Positions 7,901 through 54,733 of a stretch of DNA of 64,000 bases are shown here, piece by piece; position 1 is the first letter of the stretch, and the number at the start of each line of letters is the position of its first letter. The notes beneath the pieces are model-generated. The model had not been told where the DNA came from. It ran no database searches and worked only from the letters and a program-made list of their open reading frames with translations. The stretch comes from a virus. Its lineage: Duplodnaviria > Caudoviricetes. The position numbers were made by a program, and so were the translations under genes. The stretch is from positions 96,001 through 160,000 of the IMG/VR virus record IMGVR_UViG_3300028549_001457, one strand, 5' to 3'.

Positions 7901-8004
7901 AACGTAAGGTAGAGGCTTTTGCTAAGTGGCGACTTGAGAACCCCACCGCATGGCCCACACCTGAGCATCTAGAACCCCTCTCTCACAGGACTGTTGATGC
8001 GTAG
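4933..8004 (+). CDS. polA: Family A DNA polymerase with 3'-5' exonuclease and large insertion
   Basis: ExoI FDLETTG, ExoII QNGKFD, ExoIII YAAAD; motif A DYSAIELR, motif B RSMAKTITFGNLYG, motif C HVHDE; exact start uncertain (TTG). Confidence 0.95.
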   Translation: MERFLRVLMQDDGQDVVGVSITSEEAAEALFGELPTQQGAIEDVIMMDWDGSLPEPPIEWMRNHAWRLITSIDELKGWWEAVKADTANHVPTVVDLINKTGKVYPKVGFDLETTGLDNRVVLGQCKTHIVGVCLASYAPNSMAYAVVQTPCMSNPQPVALKQCMGIYIPIAHKGWAYNLDLLEVVAILDDIFKNAIIAAQNGKFDFLSLIANGDLVSRDVPHFNYVERVFERTTIDLPVWPRLEDPQSLIYLIDSDRMKNGGVGLKEMSKSILKQEMIEFEAITSTGVKQKKSKKFILNTFDAVAPFLAVHYAAADAIETLLLTDVLGYIRTQGNGLPFIHQLDTNTINVQTWIEQQRVLVDREYLLNEEQFLGLKCQHTLGLIHSILGAPVNPDSTKILGELLFEKMKLPNKGKTPPSKMFKQGNWKTDKESLEELAKEHPEHAIFDLIVKYRELRNSYPRKLFNGTDPLDSSAKFSFSATRTPSGRFACSGGDFEKDGGAGLNVQAIQALYATRYISVKRLNLEALQGVLGLSTSYAFDPIVFDWLKANTYQYSPVAYPSEDTFLEQLKASAPDTDPASLKSAAKQAVKEELKANKEQGLATLVEGISESVLLNNPTVINGHLKLTPDGWVCMLVDCPQCLHLPEGSPEYYFRERYEYDTSEVMNLRRAFKAAPGWTFFSVDYSAIELRMVANLANETLWVDSFIGGTDLHASMAEACFGDKFRNGDSATKSYLRSMAKTITFGNLYGGTSRTIQQNLSEPIDIHEAKRLYASWIGAIPGYQAWVSYQQAYVNTYGVVFTALGRQRVMLRDLRSGDKGKISYAERTSLNHPAQGTSADILRLSLQRIMQWVLDNGLSDYVKLHFHVHDELDFSVKDEWVPFIVPNILRIMKCDDMVRGYLKWPVGLECDVEYGQSWDVRYKFDKKAWGGISALKEFNQDIFKALFKHISEGNDYSVEDYRNVYLPVIYKTWEAGGYKDPYQDFSKATQRKVEAFAKWRLENPTAWPTPEHLEPLSHRTVDA

Positions 8005-12860: not shown

Positions 12861-12892
12861 GAACAGGGGCAGAAGGCCCCTGTTCCCTTTTT
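12861..12892 (+). terminator. Hairpin with U-tract abutting the next SD
   Basis: GAACAGGGGC-AGAAG-GCCCCTGTTC then CCTTTTT. Confidence 0.55.
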
Positions 12893-12906: not shown

Positions 12907-13401
12907 ATGTGTAGCCTAGAAGAACATATCTACCAAGAACTTAGGGATTCTGTTAAAACAGGGGATCTTTTAGTTTGGGAGGGGACTTCCCTCTTTGCTA
13001 GATTGGTTAGTCTTTTTACTAAATCTAGTTACACCCACGTTGGTCTTGCCTGGGTAGTTGGGGGAAGGGTTCTTATCCTCCAGGCTAACCCTGGAGTCGG
13101 GGTTGAGGTTGCAACTCTTAGTGATAATCTGCCTGTTGTTATATTTAAGAGTCCAACTCCCCTATCTGCAAAAGCTTTAAAGGTAGCTTTAGATCAGCTC
13201 CAGGAGCCCTATTCGTTTATGAACGCCATTCGAGCTGGCTTTGGTCTACGAGTTTCTAATAGAGGCTTCCAGTGTGTCCAGTATGTCCTGAGAGTTTTCA
13301 AAGCTAATAAGCTTAAAATTGATTTGTCCTCCCACACTCCCAAGCAGCTCGTTGAGTTCTTCGAGACCACTCTGCACGTTCAAGGTTTAAAAGTATCTTA
13401 G
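12907..13401 (+). CDS. Permuted papain-like NlpC/P60 amidase (YiiX/YebB family)
   Basis: KTGDLL..YTHVGL (His) precedes YSF..FQCVQYV (Cys), the permuted order. Confidence 0.8.
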   Translation: MCSLEEHIYQELRDSVKTGDLLVWEGTSLFARLVSLFTKSSYTHVGLAWVVGGRVLILQANPGVGVEVATLSDNLPVVIFKSPTPLSAKALKVALDQLQEPYSFMNAIRAGFGLRVSNRGFQCVQYVLRVFKANKLKIDLSSHTPKQLVEFFETTLHVQGLKVS

Positions 13402-13452
13402 ATATTGAATAACATTCAAGCGTATCTTAGGAGGTAGCTCTTTAGAGGTAGC

Positions 13453-14004
13453 TTGATGCTCAGCCCTTCACGAAAAAACCCCCCTGCCCTGGATAAATCC
13501 CCACGGCTTAGGTTTACTTCTAGGTATCCCTTTACCACTTCCTCAGACTTACTGGGAGAGGTTAAGCACCTGGAGAATGAGTTTTTTACACAACCCTGGA
13601 TGGGCGCTAAATTCATTTTAGTGGAAAGCTCTAGGTCCTTTATGTATGTCTTTGAGACTCAGCAAACTCGAGTTTCCGGGCCTGAGGATCTTCAAAGTAT
13701 CGCAGCTATGTACCGAGAGCTTGAAAACAAGTTTAATACAACTATTGCATCTTGCATTATTAATGTGAACGCCATTCCAAAAATGCCCGGTAATGTCGGG
13801 TATATTTTTGGCTATCAAGCTTTATACACCCTAACTCGGCAGGGGAGTTTGTGTGATATTTCTAAGGTATCCTATGATGACTCAAATGGAGCGCCTGAAA
13901 TTATTGAGAGCGAGAGTTCTGCTATGAAAACGGCATGGGAAGAGCGTATAGGTGAGCCTCTTGAGCATTTTATAAAGAGGCTTTTTGTGCCTATTGTAGT
14001 GTGA
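13453..14004 (+). CDS. Hypothetical protein
   Basis: 183-aa ORF; SD-like GAGG upstream. Confidence 0.65.
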   Translation: MMLSPSRKNPPALDKSPRLRFTSRYPFTTSSDLLGEVKHLENEFFTQPWMGAKFILVESSRSFMYVFETQQTRVSGPEDLQSIAAMYRELENKFNTTIASCIINVNAIPKMPGNVGYIFGYQALYTLTRQGSLCDISKVSYDDSNGAPEIIESESSAMKTAWEERIGEPLEHFIKRLFVPIVV

Positions 14005-14041
14005 AGGTGCCTTTCTCTTTTAAAGAGAGGTCAATCAACGA

Positions 14042-14413
14042 ATGAAGAAAATCCTATTGGTAGAAGACAACGTAATGAATCAGGAAGGATTCTTCAGGCT
14101 TTTATCTAAGCGTGGGTATACAGTTGTTGTAGCTACTAGTGGGGAATCTGCAATAACTAAATACAATGAGGATATGCCAGATCTCATTCTCATGGATGTG
14201 AGTCTCCCTGATATGTCCGGTTTTGATGTTACTAGGGTCATACGTTCTCTAGAAGCTAGCGCTTCTAGACCAGCTACCCCTATTATTGCAATTACTGCTC
14301 ATGCAATGGTGCAAGACCGTGTGCATGCAATCGAGGCTGGGTGTACTGACTTTGAGCCAAAACCCATGGAGTTCAAAAGATTATTCCAAAAAATAGCAAA
14401 ATATACCTCCTAA
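14042..14413 (+). CDS. Single-domain response regulator (CheY/DivK-like)
   Basis: ILLVEDN, DLILMD (Asp codon 14195), IIAITAHA, FEPKP; all catalytic positions intact. Confidence 0.95.
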   Translation: MKKILLVEDNVMNQEGFFRLLSKRGYTVVVATSGESAITKYNEDMPDLILMDVSLPDMSGFDVTRVIRSLEASASRPATPIIAITAHAMVQDRVHAIEAGCTDFEPKPMEFKRLFQKIAKYTS

Positions 14414-14458
14414 GTGTATTTCAGATATCGGGGCATCGTATCTTGTTAGGAGGTTTTT

Positions 14459-14914
14459 ATGCTTGAGCGTATCCTGGCGAGGTTGATTAAACCTGGGCAC
14501 CCCAGAGACCTACTTTCGATGATGAAGGTGTGTTCTTCTTTGATGGGTCCCGTGATTGGTTTTTGTATGTGTGTGGCTTATGTAGCTTTGACACGAAATC
14601 TATGGGCATACGTTCCAATGGTGCTTCTAGGTGGTCTGGTTTTAGGTGGGTCACTTGCCCTGAAGCATGAAATTAGGCTACGAAAATCCTACCGATCTGG
14701 CAGAGTAGCACTTCCTCCGCTTCTTGCTGAAGGCGTTGACGCCGCAGAACGTGGTGATGCTGAAAGACTCTATGCTTGTATCCAGGCTAGGGTGGACATT
14801 GTGGCTCTGGATGCACACAGTTTGGCGATATTTGACTGCCTTTTACGTGATACCCTTCATGTGTCCCCTGAACTTAAGGCTGATCTCCTAGCCATTCAGC
14901 AGCGCTCAACCTAG
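14459..14914 (+). CDS. Hypothetical membrane protein (2 TM)
   Basis: SD AGGAGG; two hydrophobic segments. Confidence 0.7.
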   Translation: MLERILARLIKPGHPRDLLSMMKVCSSLMGPVIGFCMCVAYVALTRNLWAYVPMVLLGGLVLGGSLALKHEIRLRKSYRSGRVALPPLLAEGVDAAERGDAERLYACIQARVDIVALDAHSLAIFDCLLRDTLHVSPELKADLLAIQQRST

Positions 14915-14941
14915 AACTTCTCTTGAATAGAGGAGGGTTCT

Positions 14942-15625
14942 GTGGCAGATGTCCTAAGTTTAGTTACAAAGTACTGCCCTAATGCTATGACCTTAATAAA
15001 GGACCCGTCTAAAGTTGTCTCAACTTTGACTAAGATAGGTCCCTCTATTCAAACAGCTTTGAGATTAGATCCAAAGTCTGTTCAGGGAACCTCCAATACG
15101 ATTATCACTAAGGCGGCTGCTGTTGCAGCCAGATCTCAGGATACGGCTGCAAAGGCCATTAAGACTGCCACGCAGGATGTTCAAGAGAGGGCCTTGAAAG
15201 TAGCTAAAGATAAAGCTGATGCTATTAAAAAACAAGCTTTAAACGCAGCATCTACCTCCCTAGCTAAAAATGCAGCACCCCTAATGCAGCAGTATTCTGT
15301 TGCAATGGGGTCTGTAAACTCGCTTAAACAATCAGCTTCCGCTATTGTGGAAGCTACAAGTAGCGTGTTTACAGCTCAGAAACTACTTAAACAGATTAAT
15401 TTTAAACAAGCTAACGCATCCCGAGTTAAGGTCCCATCTGGGGAGACTACTTCTATCCAGGGTAAAATTACTGCGATAAAAGATTTAGCGGAATCACAGA
15501 AGGCTACTTTAGACAAGCTTAAACTTCTAAAAAAAGATGCGGATGTAGCGTCTGAAGCCCTTAAGTCTGCTAAGGAAGCTCTAGAAAAAGCCCAAAAATC
15601 CTCAGCATTAATAAACAAGCAATAA
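14942..15625 (+). CDS. Ala/Lys-rich coiled-coil hypothetical protein
   Basis: SD GAGGAGG; heptad-rich composition. Confidence 0.7.
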   Translation: MADVLSLVTKYCPNAMTLIKDPSKVVSTLTKIGPSIQTALRLDPKSVQGTSNTIITKAAAVAARSQDTAAKAIKTATQDVQERALKVAKDKADAIKKQALNAASTSLAKNAAPLMQQYSVAMGSVNSLKQSASAIVEATSSVFTAQKLLKQINFKQANASRVKVPSGETTSIQGKITAIKDLAESQKATLDKLKLLKKDADVASEALKSAKEALEKAQKSSALINKQ

Positions 15626-15652
15626 ATTTGTGGGACTTGAAATCGTCTTTTT

Positions 15653-17566
15653 GTGAAGAACTTTCAAAGGGGTTCTGTTTTTACGATGGATTCCACATTT
15701 AAAAAATACATGCATATAGACGGGGGCACTCTTAGGATGTCTCTGACAAGCCTTTCTTTGGTGTTGTCTACCCCTCTTGGCGTGGTGGTTATTATTCTTA
15801 GTTATCTCGTTTTTGGGTTAACTCATTGGTTTGTTGGTGTCCTATTAGCTCTGGCCCTTTTTACGCTATTCATGCTAAGAGTTGTGCATGTCCATTTCAG
15901 CAACCCCCTTCTGCGATTTTCTCAAGGTATCCGTGAGTTGGATTCTCAAACCCCTCTAGAGGGGACTTCCTGCCTGGAGTTATCCAAGGTTAATGATTCT
16001 TTCTCTGCCCTAACAACCTCTCTCTATGATAAAGATATACGGGTTTCTAGGACTTTGAATACCCTCGAAGATTTAGTAGCAGAGAGAACGCTTGAGTTGT
16101 TAAAAACAAATACTGAATTGCTACTTGCTAATGAGTTAGCAGAATCCGCTGCACATGCTAAATCGGTTTTTCTCACTCATATGAGTACCTCCCTACGAAC
16201 TCCTCTTAATGGTATCCAAATTTATGCTGAGTTGCTAACAGACGCTCTTCAGGAGCTTCCAGTCTCATCTGATGCCCTTGATGATGTAAAACGAATTCAA
16301 AAATCTGCCGATCAGCTTTTGGAGACTATTGATCGAATACTAGACTATGCTCAAGTTGAAATTGGGCATATTAACATTGAGTCAGATACTATCCTTTTGA
16401 TAGACTTTATTAAAGAATGCGAATCTTTAAGTAGGTCTATGGCTAAAAAAGGTAATAACTGGTTCGACTTAATGTTGTCTCCAAACCTTCCAACATATAT
16501 CTCCACGGACCATAAGAAGCTTAAGCATGTCTTAATATCCTTATTAGATAATGCTAATAAATTTACTCACAAGGGGCATGTCAGACTTCATATAGATGAT
16601 GATGGGGATTTTTTAGTATTTACCATCTCAGATACTGGTGTTGGAATACCCCCAGAAGATCTTAAGAGTATGTTTGTTGAGTTTATTTCCAGCAACAAAA
16701 AGGGTGTGACCTCCCTGGGACTTGGATTAACGCTTACAAAAAAATACTTGGATTTGCTGGGAGGAACCATCTCAGTTAGATCTACCCTAAAACATGGAAC
16801 TGTTTTTACGGTAAAGATACCCAAGCTAGCTAAATATTTGGTTAGAAAGAATTCCTCCACGGTTCTAATTATGCTCCCAGACACCCCTGTGCGTAATGAG
16901 TTGATATCTAAGTTAACTCAGCTAGGGTTATGGACCACTGTAGTGGAGACCTTAGATGAATGTATTAAAATATCAACCTCCTTAGGGCCTCAGACCATTA
17001 TATTGGGTATTACCCGCCCTGAAGATTGGGATACGCTACTGCAACTAGGGAATTCTCTTCCTCAGCGGTGTAGGGTTCTCTGCATACAGTTTGCTGAGGA
17101 TTCAATGGAGGGGTCCATTGTAGAGGTGCGTGAGATTGTTAAAAAGCCCATTAAAAGGGATCATTTAGCGTATGTTCTTAATAGCTACGCGGCTCCCAGA
17201 AAGTCCCCCAGGGTCCTAATAATTGAAGATGATAGAGTTACTGCGTTAGCCCTATCTAGGCAAGTTGAATCGCTTGGTTGGAAAACAACTGTTGTTTTTT
17301 CAGCAGAGGCTGCGCTTCCTCACTTAGAAGTCCCCACCATAGATTTGCTTCCCTCTTTGGTGCTCCTTGATTTAGGGCTACCTGGGATGGGTGGGGCGGA
17401 ATTACTTGAGACACACTCACATATTTTTAGGGACCTACCTGTCGTGGTGGTTACTGGATCTTCCGTGTCAGGGGGTGATTTAGCTAGGATAAATATGTTC
17501 GATACTAAGGTTCCCATATCGGAAATAGCTGTGGGTGTTGCTGCTAAAGTTAGTAGATGGTCCTAG
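15653..17566 (+). CDS. Hybrid sensor histidine kinase-like protein (TM-HAMP-like-HisKA-HATPase-REC-REC) with His to Thr substitution
   Basis: AKSVFLTHMSTSLRTPLN versus consensus AKSxFLANMSHELRTPLN; N box LLDNANKFT, G1 DTGVGI, G2 LGLGL; REC1 IILGI, REC2 IIEDD..LVLLD. Confidence 0.9.
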   Translation: MKNFQRGSVFTMDSTFKKYMHIDGGTLRMSLTSLSLVLSTPLGVVVIILSYLVFGLTHWFVGVLLALALFTLFMLRVVHVHFSNPLLRFSQGIRELDSQTPLEGTSCLELSKVNDSFSALTTSLYDKDIRVSRTLNTLEDLVAERTLELLKTNTELLLANELAESAAHAKSVFLTHMSTSLRTPLNGIQIYAELLTDALQELPVSSDALDDVKRIQKSADQLLETIDRILDYAQVEIGHINIESDTILLIDFIKECESLSRSMAKKGNNWFDLMLSPNLPTYISTDHKKLKHVLISLLDNANKFTHKGHVRLHIDDDGDFLVFTISDTGVGIPPEDLKSMFVEFISSNKKGVTSLGLGLTLTKKYLDLLGGTISVRSTLKHGTVFTVKIPKLAKYLVRKNSSTVLIMLPDTPVRNELISKLTQLGLWTTVVETLDECIKISTSLGPQTIILGITRPEDWDTLLQLGNSLPQRCRVLCIQFAEDSMEGSIVEVREIVKKPIKRDHLAYVLNSYAAPRKSPRVLIIEDDRVTALALSRQVESLGWKTTVVFSAEAALPHLEVPTIDLLPSLVLLDLGLPGMGGAELLETHSHIFRDLPVVVVTGSSVSGGDLARINMFDTKVPISEIAVGVAAKVSRWS

Positions 17567-17628
17567 CCCATCATTTCCCCCTGTATTACTACTGGGTGGG
17601 CTAGCTCAAGTTCAGTCCGCTGGCATGG

Positions 17629-18189
17629 GTGCATATGAGTCTACCTTTAGAGATCCTTCTCGGGCATGTGCCCGTCTTCACGTTTGAAGATCAGACTTGT
17701 GGGCTCTGCCTCTTAGCCTCTCAGCTACGGGACTCCTTTTTTGAGCTACAACGCGAAGAGGCTGGCCCTAGCCTAGCTATTGTGACAAAAAATTGCTCTC
17801 CCGCACGTATTATATCTGAGTGTATCCCTGAGTTGCCAGTTGAAGGTCTTGGGGATTCAGAGAATTATGTGGTCACTATTTTGGCGAGTGCTGCTTTTAC
17901 TGGGTATGTTCAGAGAACCCTCTTTGAAATCTGGGCTCGGATAGAGGTAGGGAAAGAAGTTCCAGATCTCATTGGAGGAATCCTGACGATAGAGGGGGTT
18001 TATAAAGGATCTAAAAAGGCACTCTACCAAGTGATTAAGCTGGAAAATGGGTGGGCTCAATATCGTGTGCATCCATTTTCAAGGGATGATTCTGGGGTGG
18101 CGTCTTTGGTTGGGACCCCAATTGTTGAGGGGACTGAAGATGGTCCCCTTGACTTTACAGCATTTCTTGAAAATAATATAAATGGCTGA
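17629..18189 (+). CDS. Hypothetical protein
   Basis: 186-aa ORF. Confidence 0.65.
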   Translation: MHMSLPLEILLGHVPVFTFEDQTCGLCLLASQLRDSFFELQREEAGPSLAIVTKNCSPARIISECIPELPVEGLGDSENYVVTILASAAFTGYVQRTLFEIWARIEVGKEVPDLIGGILTIEGVYKGSKKALYQVIKLENGWAQYRVHPFSRDDSGVASLVGTPIVEGTEDGPLDFTAFLENNING

Positions 18190-18402: not shown

Positions 18403-19002
18403 GTGCTATCTGTCCTTGAATCTACTGGTGTGAATACTTCCACGGCAACTTTATCCGTAGATATTCAAGAATTAACCGGAACTAAAAATGGGCACTCCGT
18501 TTCGTTTCTCCCCAGATCCTCTTTCCAAACTCAGGGACTTGGGGTCCCCGTTGCAACTGTTGAGCCCGTTGCAACTGCTAACCCAGTAGCCCCTGAGCCA
18601 ACTCCCCTGAAGAAGCTCCCTAATAGGCGAGGTGGGTTCAACCAAGTTTTAAAGATGTCCGATGGGATGAAACTCTATCTTAGAACCGGGGAATTCGCAG
18701 ATGGCTCCCTTGGTGAAATCTTCGTAGATACCCAAAAAGAGGGAACCTTTGCTAGGTCAATGTTAAACTGTTTTGCCGTTGCGATTTCTACGGGACTCCA
18801 GCATGGTGTTCCTCTGAGTGTTTTTGTGGACCAGTTTAAGACTGTTATGTTTGAGCCGAAAGGCCCCGTTAGCGGTTCAGATGTTGTTTTTGAGGCTACG
18901 TCCATTATTGATGCCCTTTTTAAGGAATTAGATGCCGCCTACCCTGACGGGGTGGCCCCCATTCCGGCTCCCGTTCGGTCCCCAGTCAAGCAGAATATGT
19001 GA
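18403..19002 (+). CDS. Stand-alone class II ribonucleotide reductase C-terminal (TSCPD-like) domain
   Basis: KLPNRRGG..KLYLRTGEFADGSLGEIFVD..KEG..AISTGLQHGVPL..FEPKG..ATSIIDALFKEL. Confidence 0.8.
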   Translation: MLSVLESTGVNTSTATLSVDIQELTGTKNGHSVSFLPRSSFQTQGLGVPVATVEPVATANPVAPEPTPLKKLPNRRGGFNQVLKMSDGMKLYLRTGEFADGSLGEIFVDTQKEGTFARSMLNCFAVAISTGLQHGVPLSVFVDQFKTVMFEPKGPVSGSDVVFEATSIIDALFKELDAAYPDGVAPIPAPVRSPVKQNM

Positions 19003-49888: not shown

Positions 49889-50466
49889 CTGTAGTGGGGT
49901 CCTCTGAAGCCCTCATAAGGCTTATTGAGATTGAATTAGTTAACCAATTCCAGCGATTCTTAAAAAAGCACTCCGGTAAGAGCCCTAAAACTTGTAGGTT
50001 TAACTCGATTACACCTACTCCAGATGGTGGGTATATACGGATTTGTAGATGTCCTGTGGTAAACTCCCCCTCACCTAAAATATCTGCTGCGGTAGCTTCC
50101 GTAGCGGGTAAGCCCTGCACCACATTAGCTCATGCCAAGCGATGTCCTGTGTATCAACATTATACGGGGGTTTCGGAGTCTGAGGTAACTCAGGCTCTTA
50201 TTGATGACTTTTTCAGTAGGATCATGGACCCAGGTAGGAGGTCTACATCCTTTAAAACTCTTCATACTCTATGGATTCTTCTTCACGAAAATATGACGTT
50301 CAAATTATCCTTGGGGACTCGTATTCACCTTAGAATCCTCAGTGTGCTATTTAAGCGGAAGTATCTTGCGTATATGTTAAAATCAACCCCCCAAGCTGAT
50401 TATGAATGGGATTCCCTTACCCGTAATTTTAACTTTGTATTAACTAATGAACTGCCAAGGAGATAA
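49885..50466 (+). CDS. Cys-containing hypothetical protein
   Basis: SD AGGAGG and ATGA overlap support ATG 49885. Confidence 0.65.
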   Translation: MTVVGSSEALIRLIEIELVNQFQRFLKKHSGKSPKTCRFNSITPTPDGGYIRICRCPVVNSPSPKISAAVASVAGKPCTTLAHAKRCPVYQHYTGVSESEVTQALIDDFFSRIMDPGRRSTSFKTLHTLWILLHENMTFKLSLGTRIHLRILSVLFKRKYLAYMLKSTPQADYEWDSLTRNFNFVLTNELPRR

Positions 50467-52165
50467 CTTGTTTTCTAACATACTCACAAAAACGGAAGCT
50501 AAGGATGCACTCACGAGAGGGATTGACAAGCTTGCAGATGCTGTGCAAGTCACACTTGGCCCTAAAGGTCGCAATGTTATTCTTCGTCATCTTCATGGTC
50601 AGGTGAGGATTACCAAGGATGGTGTTTCCGTGGCTAGGCATATTACTCTTCAGGATGCCGCCGAGGATGCTGGGGCAACCCTCCTTAAAGAGTGTGCTAA
50701 TAAGACCGCTGATGACGCAGGGGATGGGACTACAACTGCGACTATTCTGGCTAGGCATATTTATCGTAAGGGTCTAGAAATCTCTCATGAGAATACTGAT
50801 CTTAACGTAGTGCAATTCCAAAGAGGGATCACAGATGCAGCCGTAGACGTATGTTCTTCATTGAACTCTATGGCTACCCCAGTTACTTCGGAGGATCAAA
50901 TCACCTCTATTGCTACGATTTCTGCTAACGGAGATACCGTCATTGGAGGTTTGTTATCCGAGGTTATCTCCCAGGTTGGGCGGGATGGATTTATTACCAT
51001 TGAGGACAGCCCCTCTACCAAAACTTCTTATACCATTACCCCAGGAGCTGAGCTTGAGAGTGGGTATCTTCACCCTGTTTTTGTGGCGAATACCGAGAGA
51101 GATGAGACGCACTTCGAGAACTGTCTTGTAATGACGCTGGATAAAAAAATAAATGGTGCGGCGGATCTTCGCCAAATACTTAGTCTTCTTCAGTATACCT
51201 CCGCTGTGAGTAAGCCTTTGTTAGTCTTTTGTCATGACATTGGAGAAGAAGCTATTGTGCAGGTAGCCGGGAATATTTCCAAGGGCCTCATTAAGCTTTG
51301 TGCGGTTAAGGCACCTGGGTTTGCTACCAAGCGAAGTGAATCTCTAGGCGATATTGCTGCACTAGTTTCCTCGAAGCTTCTCGATGAAGCGGCTCTCGCT
51401 GGGTTAGTAGAATCCGCTCAATTGTTCCATGCTGATAAACCTTCTGATTGGGCTAACTTTCAGGGGCTTGACTATCTGGGATTTTGTGACTCCGCCACCG
51501 TTACTCGTGATAAAACTACACTTGTATGCAATTCAGATATTGATGATGAGTCCCCACTTGGGAAGCGTATTTCCCTTTTGAGGCACCTCATTGAAAATTC
51601 AGGGTCTGAGTATGATACTGAGCAGCTTAAGCGTAGGTTAGCTAAGCTAGTAAGTGGCATTGCAGTTATCCATGTTGGTGCGGATACTGAGCCAGAACAG
51701 CAAGAGCTAAAAGATCGCGTGGAGGATGCGCTACACGCTACCCAGGCGGCTATTGCTGAGGGTGTCCTCCCTGGTGGCGGTGCTGCATTGTATCATTTGA
51801 AGTCTTCTTTTAAACCTTCCACAACACGGTCTGCTTCCTATGATCTAGGATATGATCTACTTATAGGTTCCTTGGACTTACCCATTCGAACTATTCTAGG
51901 AAATGCTGGGTTTTCCCCCGAGATTGTTCTAGATAGACTAGCTACATTTGTTAATGTGGATTCTTCTGTACCCGCTCATGAGTTCGGTATTGATGCGGAA
52001 TCTGGGGACATTCGGAATTTCATGGAAGCAGGCATCCTGGACCCACTTCGGGTTACTAAGTCTGCTCTTACTAATGCTGCTTCTATTGCTGGAGTGCTGT
52101 TGACTACTGAGGGATTGGTATGGCATCAAGAACTGCCATCACTTCTTGATGGCCTTCAATCCTAA
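50447..52165 (+). CDS. groL: GroEL-like chaperonin
   Basis: TLGPKGRNV, ITKDGVSVA, AGDGTTTAT, KAPGF, EGVLPGGG, GILDP; no GGM tail. Confidence 0.95.
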   Translation: MNCQGDNLFSNILTKTEAKDALTRGIDKLADAVQVTLGPKGRNVILRHLHGQVRITKDGVSVARHITLQDAAEDAGATLLKECANKTADDAGDGTTTATILARHIYRKGLEISHENTDLNVVQFQRGITDAAVDVCSSLNSMATPVTSEDQITSIATISANGDTVIGGLLSEVISQVGRDGFITIEDSPSTKTSYTITPGAELESGYLHPVFVANTERDETHFENCLVMTLDKKINGAADLRQILSLLQYTSAVSKPLLVFCHDIGEEAIVQVAGNISKGLIKLCAVKAPGFATKRSESLGDIAALVSSKLLDEAALAGLVESAQLFHADKPSDWANFQGLDYLGFCDSATVTRDKTTLVCNSDIDDESPLGKRISLLRHLIENSGSEYDTEQLKRRLAKLVSGIAVIHVGADTEPEQQELKDRVEDALHATQAAIAEGVLPGGGAALYHLKSSFKPSTTRSASYDLGYDLLIGSLDLPIRTILGNAGFSPEIVLDRLATFVNVDSSVPAHEFGIDAESGDIRNFMEAGILDPLRVTKSALTNAASIAGVLLTTEGLVWHQELPSLLDGLQS

Positions 52166-52276: not shown

Positions 52277-54733
52277 GTGGCCGAACTTAGAAAAGATACT
52301 TCTTATGCTGGTATTGCAGCACCAACTGATTTAAGGGAACCTGTTGATAACCTAGATGCTGTAAATAAGCTTTACGCTGACACCCATGTAGCGGGACTCC
52401 CCGTTACAATGACTTCTCCCACCCCTCAGGGGGGTGAATCGTTAGCATGGGATGCCACGACAAGTAGGTGGGTGCTTAGTCATGTTGCAATTGGAGCCCA
52501 AGGACCTCAGGGACCTCAGGGTATCCAGGGTGAAGTTGGTCCCATAGGCCCCGCTGGGGCAGTTGGGTCTATAGGCCCCGAGGGGCCTCAGGGCATTCAA
52601 GGCTCCCAGGGTATCCAGGGTGAGGTTGGTCCTGTAGGCCCAGAAGGGCCTCAAGGACCCATTGGTCCACAGGGTATTGAAGGTCCACAGGGTCCTGAAG
52701 GGCCACAGGGTCTCCAGGGTCCTACCGGGGATGCATTTATTATTGCCAAAACATACCCATCCATTGCTTCATTATTAGCAGATACGGCTCCAGATGTTAT
52801 TTTACCAGGACAGTTTGCTGTTATTGATACTGGCAACGTAAATGATGCCGACAATGCTCGGGTATACCTCTGGAATGGGTCCACCTATCAATATATTTTT
52901 GATATGTCTGGGGAAGTCGGTATTCAGGGTGCTACCGGACCTCAGGGTATTCAAGGACCTCAGGGTATCCAAGGACCCACAGGCCCCGCTGGGGCTGATG
53001 GTGTTAATGGGTCTCAAGGCCCCGCTGGGGCAGATGGAACTAATGGAGTTGACGGTGCAGTTGGCCCCCAGGGACCCATTGGATTGACTGGGCCTGAAGG
53101 TATTCAGGGACCTCAGGGTCCCGTAGGCCCCGCAGGACCTGAGGGTATCCAAGGTCCTTTAGGTCCCCAAGGCCCCGCTGGGGCAGACGGAACTAATGGT
53201 GTTGATGGCGTTGATGGTGCAGTTGGACCCCAGGGTCCTATTGGTCTAACGGGTCCGGAAGGCCCCGCTGGGGCTGACGGAACTAATGGTGTTGATGGTA
53301 AGTCAGCTTATGAAGTTGCGGTAGATGGAGGCTTTGTTGGGACAGAATCTGCATGGATTCTATCATTACAAGGTCCCCAAGGCCCCGCTGGGGCAGACGG
53401 AACTAATGGTGTTGATGGCGTTGATGGTGCAGTTGGACCCCAGGGTCCTATTGGTCTAACGGGTCCTGCTGGTGCTGATGGGTCTCAAGGCCCCGCTGGG
53501 GCAGATGGCGTTGATGGTGCAGTTGGACCCCAGGGTCCCATTGGTCTAACTGGGTCCAGTGCATATGAGCTTGCAGTTGCTCAAGGCTACGTTGGTGATC
53601 TGACTTCATGGTTAGCTTCTTTAAATGGCAACACAGGGCTAGGAGCCTATGAGTATTTTGTAGCCTCTCTACCTAATGGGGCACCTATTCCTACCGTGGA
53701 TGCTTGGTTAGCATCCCTTAAGGGTGAGACAGGCTCACAAGGTATTCAGGGAGAGGTTGGTCCCACAGGCCCCGCTGGGGCAGATGGTGTTGATGGAGCC
53801 ATTGGACCTCAGGGTATTCAAGGTATTCAGGGTGAAGTTGGTCCCACAGGCCCCGCTGGGGCAGATGGCGTTGATGGAGCTATTGGACCTCAGGGTATTC
53901 AGGGTGAAGTTGGTCCCACAGGCCCCGCTGGGGCAGATGGTCTAACTACTTCTGTTAATGGGGTTTCTCAAATTGCTGGTGAGATTACCCTAACAACTGA
54001 CAATATCTCTGATGCCACCTCCACCAATAAATATGTAACTGCAGCTTTAAAAACTAACTATGACACAGCCTACGAATATTCTCAGGCTGTTCAGATTGCT
54101 CATGAGGTGACTCGCTACCAGATCCATTTCAATACAGGGCTGGCTGTTTGGGCTACTAGTGCTTCTAGAGCATGGGCTAACGTAGCTTGGACTCGGACGG
54201 GAACTAGCATGACGTTGAATCATGCGGCACATGGTCATTCTGTAGGGAGTCGTGTTCTCGTAAAAGAATCAAATGTTGAGTTTATAAACGCCCTTATTGT
54301 TTCGGTAGCCACCGATTCGTTCACAATAGCCTGTGCGGATTCTGGAGCAGCTAGTGGCCTTTGTGTCTATACCATTGGGGTTACGTATACTCAAACGGGG
54401 TCTGATTCGGCTGTTTCTGGTGGCACTATCTCTGTTCCCTCTTCTGCTAAATCACTAGTTATTCAACATTTACAGATTCAATCTGGTGCAAATACTAGAG
54501 CTTCCAACTCGTATACGTTAGTTCTTCCTGCAAACGGAGCCAACTTGGGCGCGGGGGATAACACAAATATTGGGAACTTTATAGTCCCAACCCATTGGGT
54601 TAGGCAGGACGCTGACTCCCTTAGTGGAGTCGCGGCAACCCTAGTTAGAAATTATGGTGGTTCATACAACACTCTTCAAGTAGCCGCCTTGCCTGTTGCT
54701 GCAACTGGCGTCTATATTGCCCTCATCTTTTAA
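52277..54733 (+). CDS. Collagen-like (Gly-X-Y) fibre protein
   Basis: Long GPQ/GPA/GAD triplet runs interrupted by SAYE..W..SL.G motifs; beta-rich C-terminal domain. Confidence 0.9.
53161..53466 (+). repeat. Exact 96-bp direct repeat within the collagen region
   Basis: 53161-53256 equals 53371-53466. Confidence 0.85.

Follow-up and report, generated by a model that had tools for sequence, protein, structure and literature searches.

The gene analysed here lies on the plus strand of the window, a stretch of 64,000 nucleotides (positions 96,001 to 160,000) of the IMG/VR virus record IMGVR_UViG_3300028549_001457. The record has a length of 278,785 bp (95% complete according to CheckV) and represents a phage from microbial mats. 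PHROG matches in the window include a DNA polymerase, DnaB-like and other helicases, several tail fibres and GroEL. The open reading frame 15653-17566 has a GTG start and encodes a protein of 637 amino acids, P0001. A strong terminator-like hairpin is situated upstream of the gene block 12907-18189. The other terminator-like matches on the plus strand were weak, i.e. two stems of 5-6 pairs within the first gene of the block (12977-12991) and a stem of 9 pairs within a 183-aa gene (13783-13803), and the next promoter-like sites of the consensus scan were at 18149 and 18186. The features of the locus are:

12861..12885, plus strand: strong terminator-like hairpin, 10-bp stem with 7 GC pairs and a T run (consensus scan only)
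14042..14413, plus strand: stand-alone single-domain receiver P0124, 123 aa (Pfam, 94.2 bits)
14459..14914, plus strand: small membrane protein, 151 aa, conserved module member (homologues at the same position in L019, 29%, and L027, 26%)
14942..15625, plus strand: Ala/Lys/Ser-rich helical protein, 227 aa, conserved module member (homologues directly upstream of the pseudokinase in L019, 38%, and L027, 36%)
15653..17566, plus strand: hybrid histidine pseudokinase gene, P0001, 637 aa (translation; Pfam HisKA, HATPase_c and Response_reg)
15731..15892, plus strand: two transmembrane helices, about residues 27-80, with a very short loop (model helices 27-53 and 60-96)
16160..16360, plus strand: HisKA (DHp) domain, residues 170-236 (Pfam)
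16169..16213, plus strand: degenerate H-box FLTHMSTSLRTPLNG (alignments, residue counts)
16508..16825, plus strand: HATPase_c (CA) domain, residues 286-391, N box and G1 intact (Pfam; alignment columns)
16685..16735, plus strand: remodelled ATP lid and G2 box, residues 345-361, with a 3-residue deletion (alignments; pLDDT falls to about 60)
16859..17185, plus strand: pseudo-receiver REC1, residues 403-511, (beta-alpha)5 fold kept (model, pLDDT about 90; alignments)
17210..17560, plus strand: receiver REC2, residues 520-636 (Pfam 521-604; complete fold including helix 5 in the model)
17629..18189, plus strand: conserved downstream gene, 186 aa (30% identity to the L027 copy)

P0001 is thus composed of two transmembrane helices, HisKA, HATPase_c, the pseudo-receiver REC1 and the receiver REC2, in this order. 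The Pfam scores were 49.3 bits for HisKA (residues 170-236; cut-off 26.9), 84.4 bits for HATPase_c (residues 286-391; above the cut-off) and 37.8 bits for Response_reg (residues 521-604), the last match spanning only model positions 1-80 of 111. The HisKA and HATPase_c folds were confirmed by an AlphaFold2 model of the protein (mean pLDDT 85.7) and by structural matches. In the translation and in the model, the loop between the transmembrane helices consists of a few residues, and a periplasmic sensor domain is absent. In the relatives P0126 and L019, a HAMP match directly follows the transmembrane helices.

Motif columns were counted in an alignment of 49 sequences, 43 of which are homologues from outside the P0001 clade described below. 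The H-box of P0001 reads FLTHMSTSLRTPLNG, and that of the aligned homologues FLANMSHELRTPLNA (43 of 43). T179 (codon 16187) occupies the position of the canonical His and S180 (codon 16190) that of the canonical Glu (His+1), while the 43 homologues without exception have His at the former and Glu or Asp at the latter position. The Thr at +4, T183 of P0001 (codon 16199), is present in all five clade members as well as in all 43 homologues. The initial annotation had described exactly this combination, the exchange of His for Thr and of Glu for Ser with retention of Thr+4 and RTP, and translation and alignment agreed with it at every coordinate. An extra His at -3, which it had also reported, was found as H176 (codon 16178). 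In a wider set, 282 of 289 homologues have kept the acceptor His and only two sequences outside the clade are devoid of it; given this count, the loss in the clade is more than chance.

The ATP-binding domain of P0001 is a mosaic of kept and lost motifs. The N box (N300, K303) and the G1 box (D327, G329, G331) are intact in the alignment columns, as expected from the annotation. It had further regarded the G2 box as partly eroded; erosion was indeed observed, but its extent had been underestimated. The invariant G354 is replaced by Ser, T355 by Leu, the invariant Q346 by Ser and R350 by Lys, and the ATP lid is three residues shorter. With the N and G1 boxes kept and the G2 box and lid replaced, binding of ATP appears possible, while catalysis is doubtful. 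Judged from its residues, i.e. the absence of the acceptor His and of the catalytic acid at +1 together with the degenerate lid, P0001 is predicted to be unable to autophosphorylate. REC1 has lost the acidic pair, the phosphorylatable Asp (G452, codon 17006, the predicted Asp-to-Gly exchange) and the Thr, and has kept K498-P499. REC2 has retained E525-D526-D527, D573 (codon 17369) and T601, in accordance with the acidic residues and the Asp noted before. K619 is a candidate for its Lys, which is present in P0001 and not conserved in P0126 or P0127.

An exhaustive representative search and a metagenome scan yielded a clade of five sequences, namely P0001, P0126, P0127, P0128/P0296 and L019, two of which are without long flanks. 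The four relatives have identities of 38-43%, and their reading frames of 569-641 aa are open. In a quick tree the clade is monophyletic (SH-aLRT 100) and sits on a long stem branch. The residues at positions 0/+1 are TS, SS, SM, AS and SS, the acceptor position thus being T, S, S, A and S and never His. In all five members both the His and the acid at +1 are missing and Thr+4, RTP, the N box and G1 are present, with R182, T183, P184, N300, D327, G329 and G331 invariant in the clade alignment. The annotation had proposed to ask whether homologues share the substitutions, and the answer is that they do. The three-residue deletion in the ATP lid and the loss of the invariant G2 residues are also common to the clade, so that the damage to the kinase extends beyond the H-box. 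Hence, the earlier view of a selectively disabled kinase holds insofar as the kinase function was specifically and heritably lost and the protein was kept, but not as a lesion of the H-box only. Conservation differs between regions: DHp helix 1 is best conserved (48-71% identity), followed by REC2 (57-60% among the three members that keep it), while the CA domain (about 42%), REC1 (about 30%) and the transmembrane region (about 20%) are less conserved. The D573 pocket of REC2 is kept in three of four full-length members; P0128/P0296 has lost REC2, and in the P0128/L027 lineage the stand-alone receiver persists. The clade combines a histidine kinase fold with a conserved absence of the acceptor His and thus consists of histidine pseudokinases.

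Additional searches did not enlarge the clade. Nucleotide and protein searches of GenBank phages gave no close relative of P0001, and the protein matches were ordinary kinases of at most 35% identity, mostly in contaminating bacterial contigs. Scans of IMG/VR with the protein, the phage DNA polymerase and the clade alignment gave no clade member and only one unrelated phage hybrid kinase, L018, with a normal His. When the clade profile was used in a word-indexed protein search, generic kinases dominated the result and the known members were not recovered, and a search with the REC1-REC2 part of P0126 gave no new member.

The degenerate motifs could in principle reflect an assembly or sequencing artefact or the decay of a captured host kinase, and for decay it could be argued that the H-box, G2 and REC1 are degenerate at once and that the stem branch is long. 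However, this reading is contradicted by the data and has hardly any credibility left. The DNA of the gene is 100% identical, with 0 differences, in five other assemblies (JGI, Logan and ENA), i.e. in six assemblies in total. The contigs of 4 runs from 4 studies contain 0 other letters over the gene, and 3 of these runs cover codon 179. Both sequencing error and random decay in homologues had been named in the annotation as findings that would overturn it; the assemblies and runs gave no sign of the former, and the shared motif losses, the non-random conservation and the open frames argue against the latter. The same losses have occurred in four relatives with 38-43% identity and preserved synteny, and therefore P0001 is a maintained kinase-dead protein and not a product of decay or error. 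It is also highly improbable that the protein has remained a kinase by using another acceptor, be it His176, which lies one helical turn upstream, or Ser/Thr at 179/180 as in kinases derived from the histidine kinase fold. His176 is present in three clade members, a Ser or Thr stands at position 0, at +1 or at both in each of the five sequences, and N300, D327, G329 and G331 of the adenine pocket do not vary, all of which would be compatible with residual kinase activity. Yet L019 has Asn and P0128 has Gln in place of His176, and P0128 has Ala at position 0. As the His at -3 is thus found in only three of five members, it is unlikely to be a shifted acceptor. In addition, the +1 acid is gone, and the lid lacks G354, T355, Q346 and three residues.

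The order receiver, small transmembrane protein, coiled-coil protein and pseudokinase was found wherever enough flanking sequence is known, i.e. in the P0127 contig, L027 and L019, and genes of 178-184 aa follow the pseudokinase in every context. The receiver P0124 has all catalytic residues. L027 (52% identity) and the P0127 contig each have a counterpart in the corresponding place, and in the comparison with L027 the receiver is better conserved than the pseudokinase (52% versus 38%). P0124 is a likely partner of the pseudokinase, an assignment made from the gene neighbourhood only. The 151-aa and 227-aa proteins had no match in Pfam or PHROGs, and atlas look-ups gave nothing above the chance range. 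In L027, two open reading frames precede the module, one of 266 aa without a Pfam match and one of 146 aa with DUF5675. They are unlike the open reading frames at 7994, 8748 and 10952 of the window in size and annotation; the latter are situated before the hairpin at 12861 and gave no Pfam match at E <= 0.1.

The same phage genome contains an intact YfiR/CHASE8-HisKA-HATPase kinase, P0122, together with a receiver, to which P0124 is 43% identical. No cellular homologue is closer to the pseudokinase than P0122 (36% over DHp-CA), and the quick tree, in which two long branches are involved, places it as a tentative sister of the pseudokinase clade (SH-aLRT 83). Both proteins have a bulky residue at H+11, a position occupied by Gly in 33 of the 43 homologues. 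The presence of this second, canonical kinase-receiver pair changes the likely targets of the pseudokinase compared with those considered in the annotation. An Hpt domain was not found in the phage genome. The nearest cellular relatives of the pseudokinase are CHASE8-type hybrid kinases, the nearest of all being P0002; its sample of origin also yielded the P0127 phage contig.

Taken together, P0001 is a maintained kinase-dead signalling protein and probably a brake on receiver phosphorylation. Three roles had been proposed at the outset, a phosphatase-only enzyme, a dominant-negative dimer partner and a sensor of phosphorylated receivers, and all of them are still possible. We tentatively favour, at a little less than an even chance, a pseudokinase that is maintained by selection in a fixed module and is a negative regulator by way of phosphatase activity, phosphate drain or RetS-like antagonism. 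The membrane-anchored protein would act on phospho-signalling via the conserved surface of DHp helix 1. Its binding partner would be the co-encoded receiver, perhaps along with the receiver of the canonical CHASE8 module or host receivers. The retained Thr+4 would speed up dephosphorylation of the receiver, making the protein a transmitter phosphatase, and the intact Asp of REC2 would add a phosphoryl drain in most members, as has been described for RetS acting on GacS. The motif losses, their conservation, the synteny, the fold and the canonical kinase were observed, while we infer which partners are bound and that the protein works as a phosphatase or drain. A source of phosphate is present, namely the intact CHASE8 kinase with its receiver. 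The invariance of Thr183, Arg182 and Pro184 in the clade seems compatible with phosphatase activity. In CrdS, HK853 and other HisKA proteins, the +1 acid is needed only for the kinase and Thr/Asn+4 only for the phosphatase reaction, and a His-to-Ala mutant of CrdS keeps most of its phosphatase activity, with a CrdA~P half-life of 2.6 min versus 53.5 min for CrdA~P alone (PMC3510030). The corresponding His-to-Ala mutant of PleC lost its phosphatase activity too (cited in PMC3510030). Moreover, HisKA helices conserve Thr+4, Arg and Pro for structural reasons as well, and their retention therefore is no proof of phosphatase activity. P0128/P0296 has no REC2, and therefore the phosphate drain cannot be the core function.

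The main rival of negative regulation is reversed signalling as in DivL, in which a non-catalytic DHp/CA core senses the phosphorylated neighbouring receiver and relays the signal by protein contacts, e.g. to the canonical kinase of the phage, a host kinase or the co-conserved membrane and helical proteins. We regard it as possible, but rather unlikely. In its favour, a His-less core adjoins a DivK-like single-domain receiver without an output domain, DHp helix 1 is the best conserved region, the degenerate ATP lid fits a non-catalytic role, and the two conserved uncharacterised proteins of the module could be the output. Structurally, the DivL core matches clearly (4q20, TM 0.74 by target), and DivL is described as a repurposed kinase that reads DivK~P (PMC4211667). 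However, P0001 is not an orthologue of DivL, its nearest homologues are CHASE8 hybrids and it has no PAS sensor region; in addition, a pure scaffold would not call for the invariant Thr+4 and the intact acidic pocket of REC2. A purely dominant-negative role, with the DHp domain of the pseudokinase forming heterodimers with P0122 or host hybrid kinases and blocking their autophosphorylation without phosphatase chemistry, is still less likely. The similarity to P0122 (identity over DHp-CA, tentative sister position, shared bulky H+11) and the common sample origin of P0002 and the P0127 contig would be in agreement with it, and RetS blocks GacS in this manner, among other ways (PMC5992135; also PMC8498467). 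Yet heterodimerization would be unusual for kinases of 36% identity, the sister relation stems from a quick tree with two long branches, and such a role alone leaves the conserved adjacent receiver and REC2 unexplained.

Negative regulation by the pseudokinase could, as an unlikely extension, be part of a phospho-signalling network that a lineage of large mat phages runs on its own. The network would consist of the YfiR/CHASE8 kinase as a sensor of the envelope, two paralogous single-domain receivers, a GIY-YIG nuclease fused to a receiver, a 60-residue DHp-only protein and the pseudokinase as a RetS-like brake (phosphatase, sink and kinase blocker). The phage might use it for timing an infection decision according to the state of the host envelope or for shutting down a related hybrid-kinase pathway of the host. 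Few bacterial histidine pseudokinases are known, i.e. DivL, PsmA and RetS-like proteins, and a full-text literature search gave no paper describing a histidine kinase or pseudokinase of a phage. In the present case, the loss of the His is ancestral to a phage clade and was kept together with a receiver gene, and an intact kinase-receiver pair is present in the same genome. One kinase, one pseudokinase and a few receivers make up a small natural system, in which one could probe how kinase-dead paralogues shape two-component signalling and learn whether phages apply phosphatase or sink logic to their own phosphorelays or to those of their hosts.

RetS of Pseudomonas aeruginosa, which antagonises GacS, shares with P0001 the order HisKA-HATPase-REC-REC, a non-functional kinase core, the phosphatase-motif Thr of the H-box and the Asp of the second receiver (PMC5992135). 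RetS does not autophosphorylate, has a T428-dependent transmitter phosphatase activity and uses D858 as phosphoryl acceptor (PMC5992135). Its kinase core (6dk8) was the best-superposing template for P0001 (TM 0.82 by target, rmsd 2.8 Å). However, RetS has retained His and Glu and is inactive due to its degenerate HATPase domain, whereas P0001 has lost His and Glu as well. RetS has a large periplasmic sensor (7TMR-DISMED2) and is encoded on a bacterial chromosome, while P0001 has no sensor and is encoded by a phage. P0001 is not an orthologue of RetS, the PDB sequence match having an E value of only 2e-20. ShkA of Caulobacter has the domain order DHp-CA-pseudoREC-REC in common with P0001, and 6qrj was the top Foldseek match over the full length (E 2.8e-21). 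The pseudo-receiver of ShkA binds c-di-GMP. In contrast to the His-less P0001, ShkA is an active kinase with the His. The nearest cellular homologues, the bacterial YfiR-associated CHASE8 hybrid kinases P0002 and P0315, have the same HK-REC-REC layout, again with a receiver gene downstream in the locus; the P0315 locus has, in addition, a YfiR/DUF4154 gene upstream. Unlike P0001, they keep the CHASE8 sensor, the His, the Glu, a full G2 box and two intact receivers.

P0001 is orthologous neither to DivL of Caulobacter (distant PDB match, E 2.6e-17) nor to PsmA of Streptomyces. DivL resembles it in the absence of the acceptor His, the conservation of this loss in the family and the pairing with a single-domain receiver (PMC4211667). 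In DivL, the position of the His is taken by Tyr, PAS domains are present and receivers are not attached, whereas the P0001 clade has Thr, Ser or Ala at this position, no sensor and two receiver-like domains, and belongs to a CHASE8-related subfamily. PsmA is, like the P0001 clade, a hybrid protein with a variable residue in place of the His, a degenerate ATP lid and a retained receiver Asp (PMC12963549). It acts through DivIVA without phospho-chemistry and does not have the phosphatase-motif Thr/Asn (XSLRGP; PMC12963549), while the P0001 clade keeps Thr+4 in all five members and adjoins a receiver gene. Further parallels are the H371A and E372A mutants of CrdS and mutants of HK853, which have lost the His or the +1 acid, both of them absent from P0001, and which are kinase-negative but still phosphatases that depend on Thr/Asn (PMC3510030). 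For ChrS, too, a pseudokinase version has been reported (PMC9491836). The CrdS, HK853 and ChrS proteins are laboratory or single-strain variants of active kinases, whereas the state of P0001 is ancestral to a phage clade and is accompanied by erosion of the ATP lid.

The ORF at 15653-17566 (+) encodes a protein of 637 residues (P0001), in which Pfam profiles detected three domains above the cut-offs.

Pfam domains of P0001
Residues 170-236: HisKA (DHp)
Residues 286-391: HATPase_c (CA)
Residues 521-604: Response_reg

An AlphaFold2 model, calculated from a 49-sequence alignment (mean pLDDT 85.7), predicted two N-terminal membrane helices with a loop of only a few residues between them, and a long signalling helix that continues as DHp helix 1. 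Next come DHp helix 2 and the CA domain, and the model ends with two complete (beta-alpha)5 domains, REC1 (403-511) and REC2 (520-636).

The H-box of P0001 reads FLTHMSTSLRTPLNG; all 15 nearest word-search homologues have FLANMSHELRTPLNA. In the 49-sequence alignment, each of the 43 non-clade sequences contains His at position 179, Glu or Asp at 180 and Thr at 183. The initial annotation had placed H176 at 16178, T179 at 16187, G452 at 17006 and D573 at 17369, and these positions were all correct. The N and G1 boxes are indeed intact (N300, K303, D327, G329, G331). The G2 box had been described as partly eroded, which is true but understates the extent: the ATP lid is three residues shorter, and Q346, R350, G354 and T355, conserved in 43, 39, 43 and 42 of 43 homologues, respectively, are all replaced. 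In REC1, the proposed exchange of Asp to Gly452 was verified, and the acidic pair and the Thr are also gone; Lys498-Pro499 is retained. As had been reported, REC2 keeps its acidic residues and Asp (Glu525-Asp526-Asp527, Asp573), and also Thr601. Judged from the sequence, P0001 cannot carry out canonical autophosphorylation chemistry, since it has lost the acceptor as well as the catalytic acid and the lid. Among 289 homologues, clade members included, only two from outside the clade were without the His. Both are sporadic bacterial cases, with Tyr in place of the His and Ser at +1 in P0218 (FLRSLSYSMRTHLTD) and Arg in place of the His in P0013 (FLANMSRELRTPLNA).

Three JGI samples, two Logan runs and one ENA assembly contain contigs that encode the identical protein, and within the gene and as much as 13.9 kb of its surroundings their DNA matched the window at 100% identity. 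When contigs from four runs, belonging to four studies, were compared with the window over 14000-17600, no letter differed; three of these runs covered codon 179. Sequencing error, which the initial annotation had named as a possible refutation, is thus ruled out. With identical DNA in all of these, the population shows no variants in which selection could be read.

An exhaustive search of 1.84 billion representatives yielded three proteins that are far closer to P0001 than any ordinary kinase, and a metagenome scan added a fourth relative.

Clade relatives of P0001 (length, identity to P0001, H-box)
P0126: 641 aa, 43%, FLSHMSSSLRTPLNG
P0127: 634 aa, 41%, FLSHMSSMLRTPLNG
P0128: 569 aa, 39%, FLSQMSASFRTPLMG; a variant, P0296, lies on the longer contig L027
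L019: partial, from the metagenome scan, FLTNMSSSLRTPITG

The substitutions turned out to be shared: the His and the +1 acid are missing and Arg-Thr-Pro is retained in all five members; a His at -3 is found in only three. All five carry the deletion in the lid and lack G354 and T355, and four of them also have another residue in place of G358. The four full-length members all have a degenerate REC1; three of them keep an intact REC2, which P0128 has lost. The DHp-CA regions of 111 sequences were placed in a quick maximum-likelihood tree, in which the clade members clustered together (SH-aLRT 100); the stem leading to them is long, at 1.33 changes per site.

Within-clade identity
DHp helix 1 region: 48-71%
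REC2 (three members retaining it): 57-60%
CA: about 42%
REC1: about 30%
Membrane part: about 20%

Random decay across all motifs, another outcome that could have overturned the annotation, is contradicted by the common losses and the uneven conservation: frames of 570-640 codons have remained open at such divergence, and conservation is focused on the receiver-contacting helix. The clade protein is thus kinase-dead yet maintained by selection, beside a receiver.

The gene order around the pseudokinase is conserved between the window, the P0127 contig and L027.

Neighbourhood of P0001 in the window (identity to L027)
12907-13401: Peptidase_C92/YiiX-like protein, 60%
14042-14413: stand-alone receiver P0124, 52%
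14459-14914: small membrane protein, 26%
14942-15625: Ala/Lys/Ser-rich helical protein, 36%
15653-17566 (+): pseudokinase P0001, 38%
Downstream gene: 30%
18403-19002: TSCPD-domain protein, 64%

P0296 is flanked on L027 in the same order as in the window. The P0127 contig (48.8 kb) encodes proteins of 159 and 178 aa, a receiver (126 aa), proteins of 162 and 410 aa, the pseudokinase, proteins of 178 and 133 aa and the TSCPD protein; in L019, the small membrane protein and the helical protein are immediately upstream of the pseudokinase. The C92-like and TSCPD proteins flank the module and are its best-conserved neighbours. The receiver P0124 has every catalytic residue and is kept even where the lineage lost REC2. 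The membrane and helical proteins always lie between receiver and pseudokinase in related contigs. The latter is enlarged to 410-561 aa in other contigs, and in L027 its N-terminus carries a Ser/Thr-rich extension; the former, in its Atlas model, only weakly resembles the N-terminal part of small kinases (TM 0.43-0.45). A consensus scan found a strong terminator-like hairpin upstream of the block (12861-12885), only weaker + strand matches inside it (12977-12991 and 13783-13803, stems of 5-9 pairs) and the next promoter-like sites at 18149 and 18186, and therefore 12907-18189 may be one transcription unit.

The window spans bases 96001-160000 of an IMG/VR record of 278,785 bp, which is rated 95% complete; its DNA is present in microbial-mat metagenomes. 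The large ORFs of the window are all on the + strand, and the phage assignment holds because PHROG profiles matched a DNA polymerase, DnaB-like and other helicases, several tail-fibre proteins and GroEL. The phage-encoded GroEL-type chaperonin (50447-52165, E 6.5e-126) is followed by an 818-aa collagen-like tail-fibre protein (52277-54733) in a region of raised GC (0.526). Profile searches and ORF reading across the whole record revealed further two-component genes and, by profile, no Hpt domain.

Other two-component genes of the record
L013:215-2542 (G000:C1 about 205762-208089, outside the window): canonical module of overlapping or abutting genes for YfiR/DUF4154 (163 aa), the CHASE8-HisKA-HATPase kinase P0122 (493 aa) and the single-domain receiver P0123 (120 aa)
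L015:1486-1668 (G000:C1 about 213261-213443): 60-residue stand-alone DHp-like protein, H-box HDLRNAL, HisKA E 1.4e-4 (below cut-off), directly upstream of a 342-aa ORF
L003:1249-1857 (G000:C1 about 274169-274777): P0125 (202 aa), GIY-YIG (Pfam 58 bits) in frame with a receiver (Response_reg 61 bits) with intact acidic pocket, possibly a phosphorylation-gated nuclease

P0122 has a normal His in its H-box (FLANMSHELRTPLT) and a full GGTGLGL. With 36% identity to P0001 over DHp-CA, it is no more distant than any cellular homologue; P0124 and P0123 are 43% identical. The quick tree placed P0122 as sister of the pseudokinase clade (SH-aLRT 83), with CHASE8-type hybrid kinases next to both; since P0122 and the clade each sit on a long branch, we regard this position as tentative. 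For the kinase core of P0001 as well as for its REC1-REC2 tandem, the closest cellular proteins are of the CHASE8-HK-REC-REC type; their loci have a receiver gene downstream and, in one genome, a YfiR gene upstream. A reasonable history would be that a CHASE8-type locus was captured once and then duplicated, that one copy kept sensor and His, and that the other lost sensor, His, lid and REC1. The nearest cellular-type homologue, P0002 (CHASE8-HK-REC-REC), is followed by genes for a 124-aa receiver and a REC-HisKA-HATPase protein. Its contig and the P0127 phage contig come from the same sample (ENA ERZ1426824), which may hint at the host lineage or the donor locus.

While the observation and the conclusion of a kept, kinase-dead protein are solid, we infer the mechanism. 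HisKA kinases need the +1 acid only for kinase activity and Thr/Asn at +4 only for phosphatase activity; CrdS H371A retains most and E372A all of its phosphatase activity (PMC3510030). RetS has no autophosphorylation ability and dampens GacS by phosphoryl transfer to D858 of its second receiver, by a T428-dependent transmitter phosphatase and by blocking autophosphorylation (PMC5992135). Based on these precedents, and given a protein that is dead but kept, we tentatively prefer a negative regulator: the conserved DHp helix 1 would bind receivers, phosphate would be stripped from them, and REC2 would serve as an added sink in most members. The phosphate could come from host kinases or from the CHASE8 kinase that the phage itself encodes.

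The main rival, which we consider rather unlikely, is a non-catalytic reader of the phosphorylated receiver with output to the two conserved neighbour proteins or another kinase, for which DivL is a precedent (PMC4211667). It is still less probable that P0001 acts solely by forming heterodimers that block P0122 or a host kinase. A shifted His or a Ser/Thr as acceptor is very improbable, because position 176 is not conserved and lid and catalytic acid are lost.

By profile and fold, P0001 belongs to the HisKA/HATPase_c superfamily, but it lacks the catalytic features by which a functional kinase is defined. Pseudokinases of its type are already known in bacteria, as are kinase-like genes in phage collections (PHROG families and L018, an unrelated IMG/VR phage contig); full-text searching of a paper library found no description of a phage histidine kinase or pseudokinase. 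The 492-aa hybrid kinase of L018 (9782-11260) has a normal H-box (FLSRMSHEIRTPING) and a stretch of about 18 Ala-Gln repeats between its CA and receiver domains. The best solved relative by sequence was the GacS kinase core (7z8n, E 3e-30), and RetS, ShkA and DivL matched too; orthology to DivL, PsmA or RetS was rejected. The top match by fold was full-length ShkA, with the domain order DHp-CA-pseudoREC-REC. The RetS core superposed best (TM 0.82 by target, rmsd 2.8 A), and RetS has the HisKA-HATPase-REC-REC layout in common with P0001. The hybrid pseudokinase PsmA acts without any phospho-chemistry (PMC12963549) and lacks Thr+4, which, in contrast, the clade of P0001 keeps.
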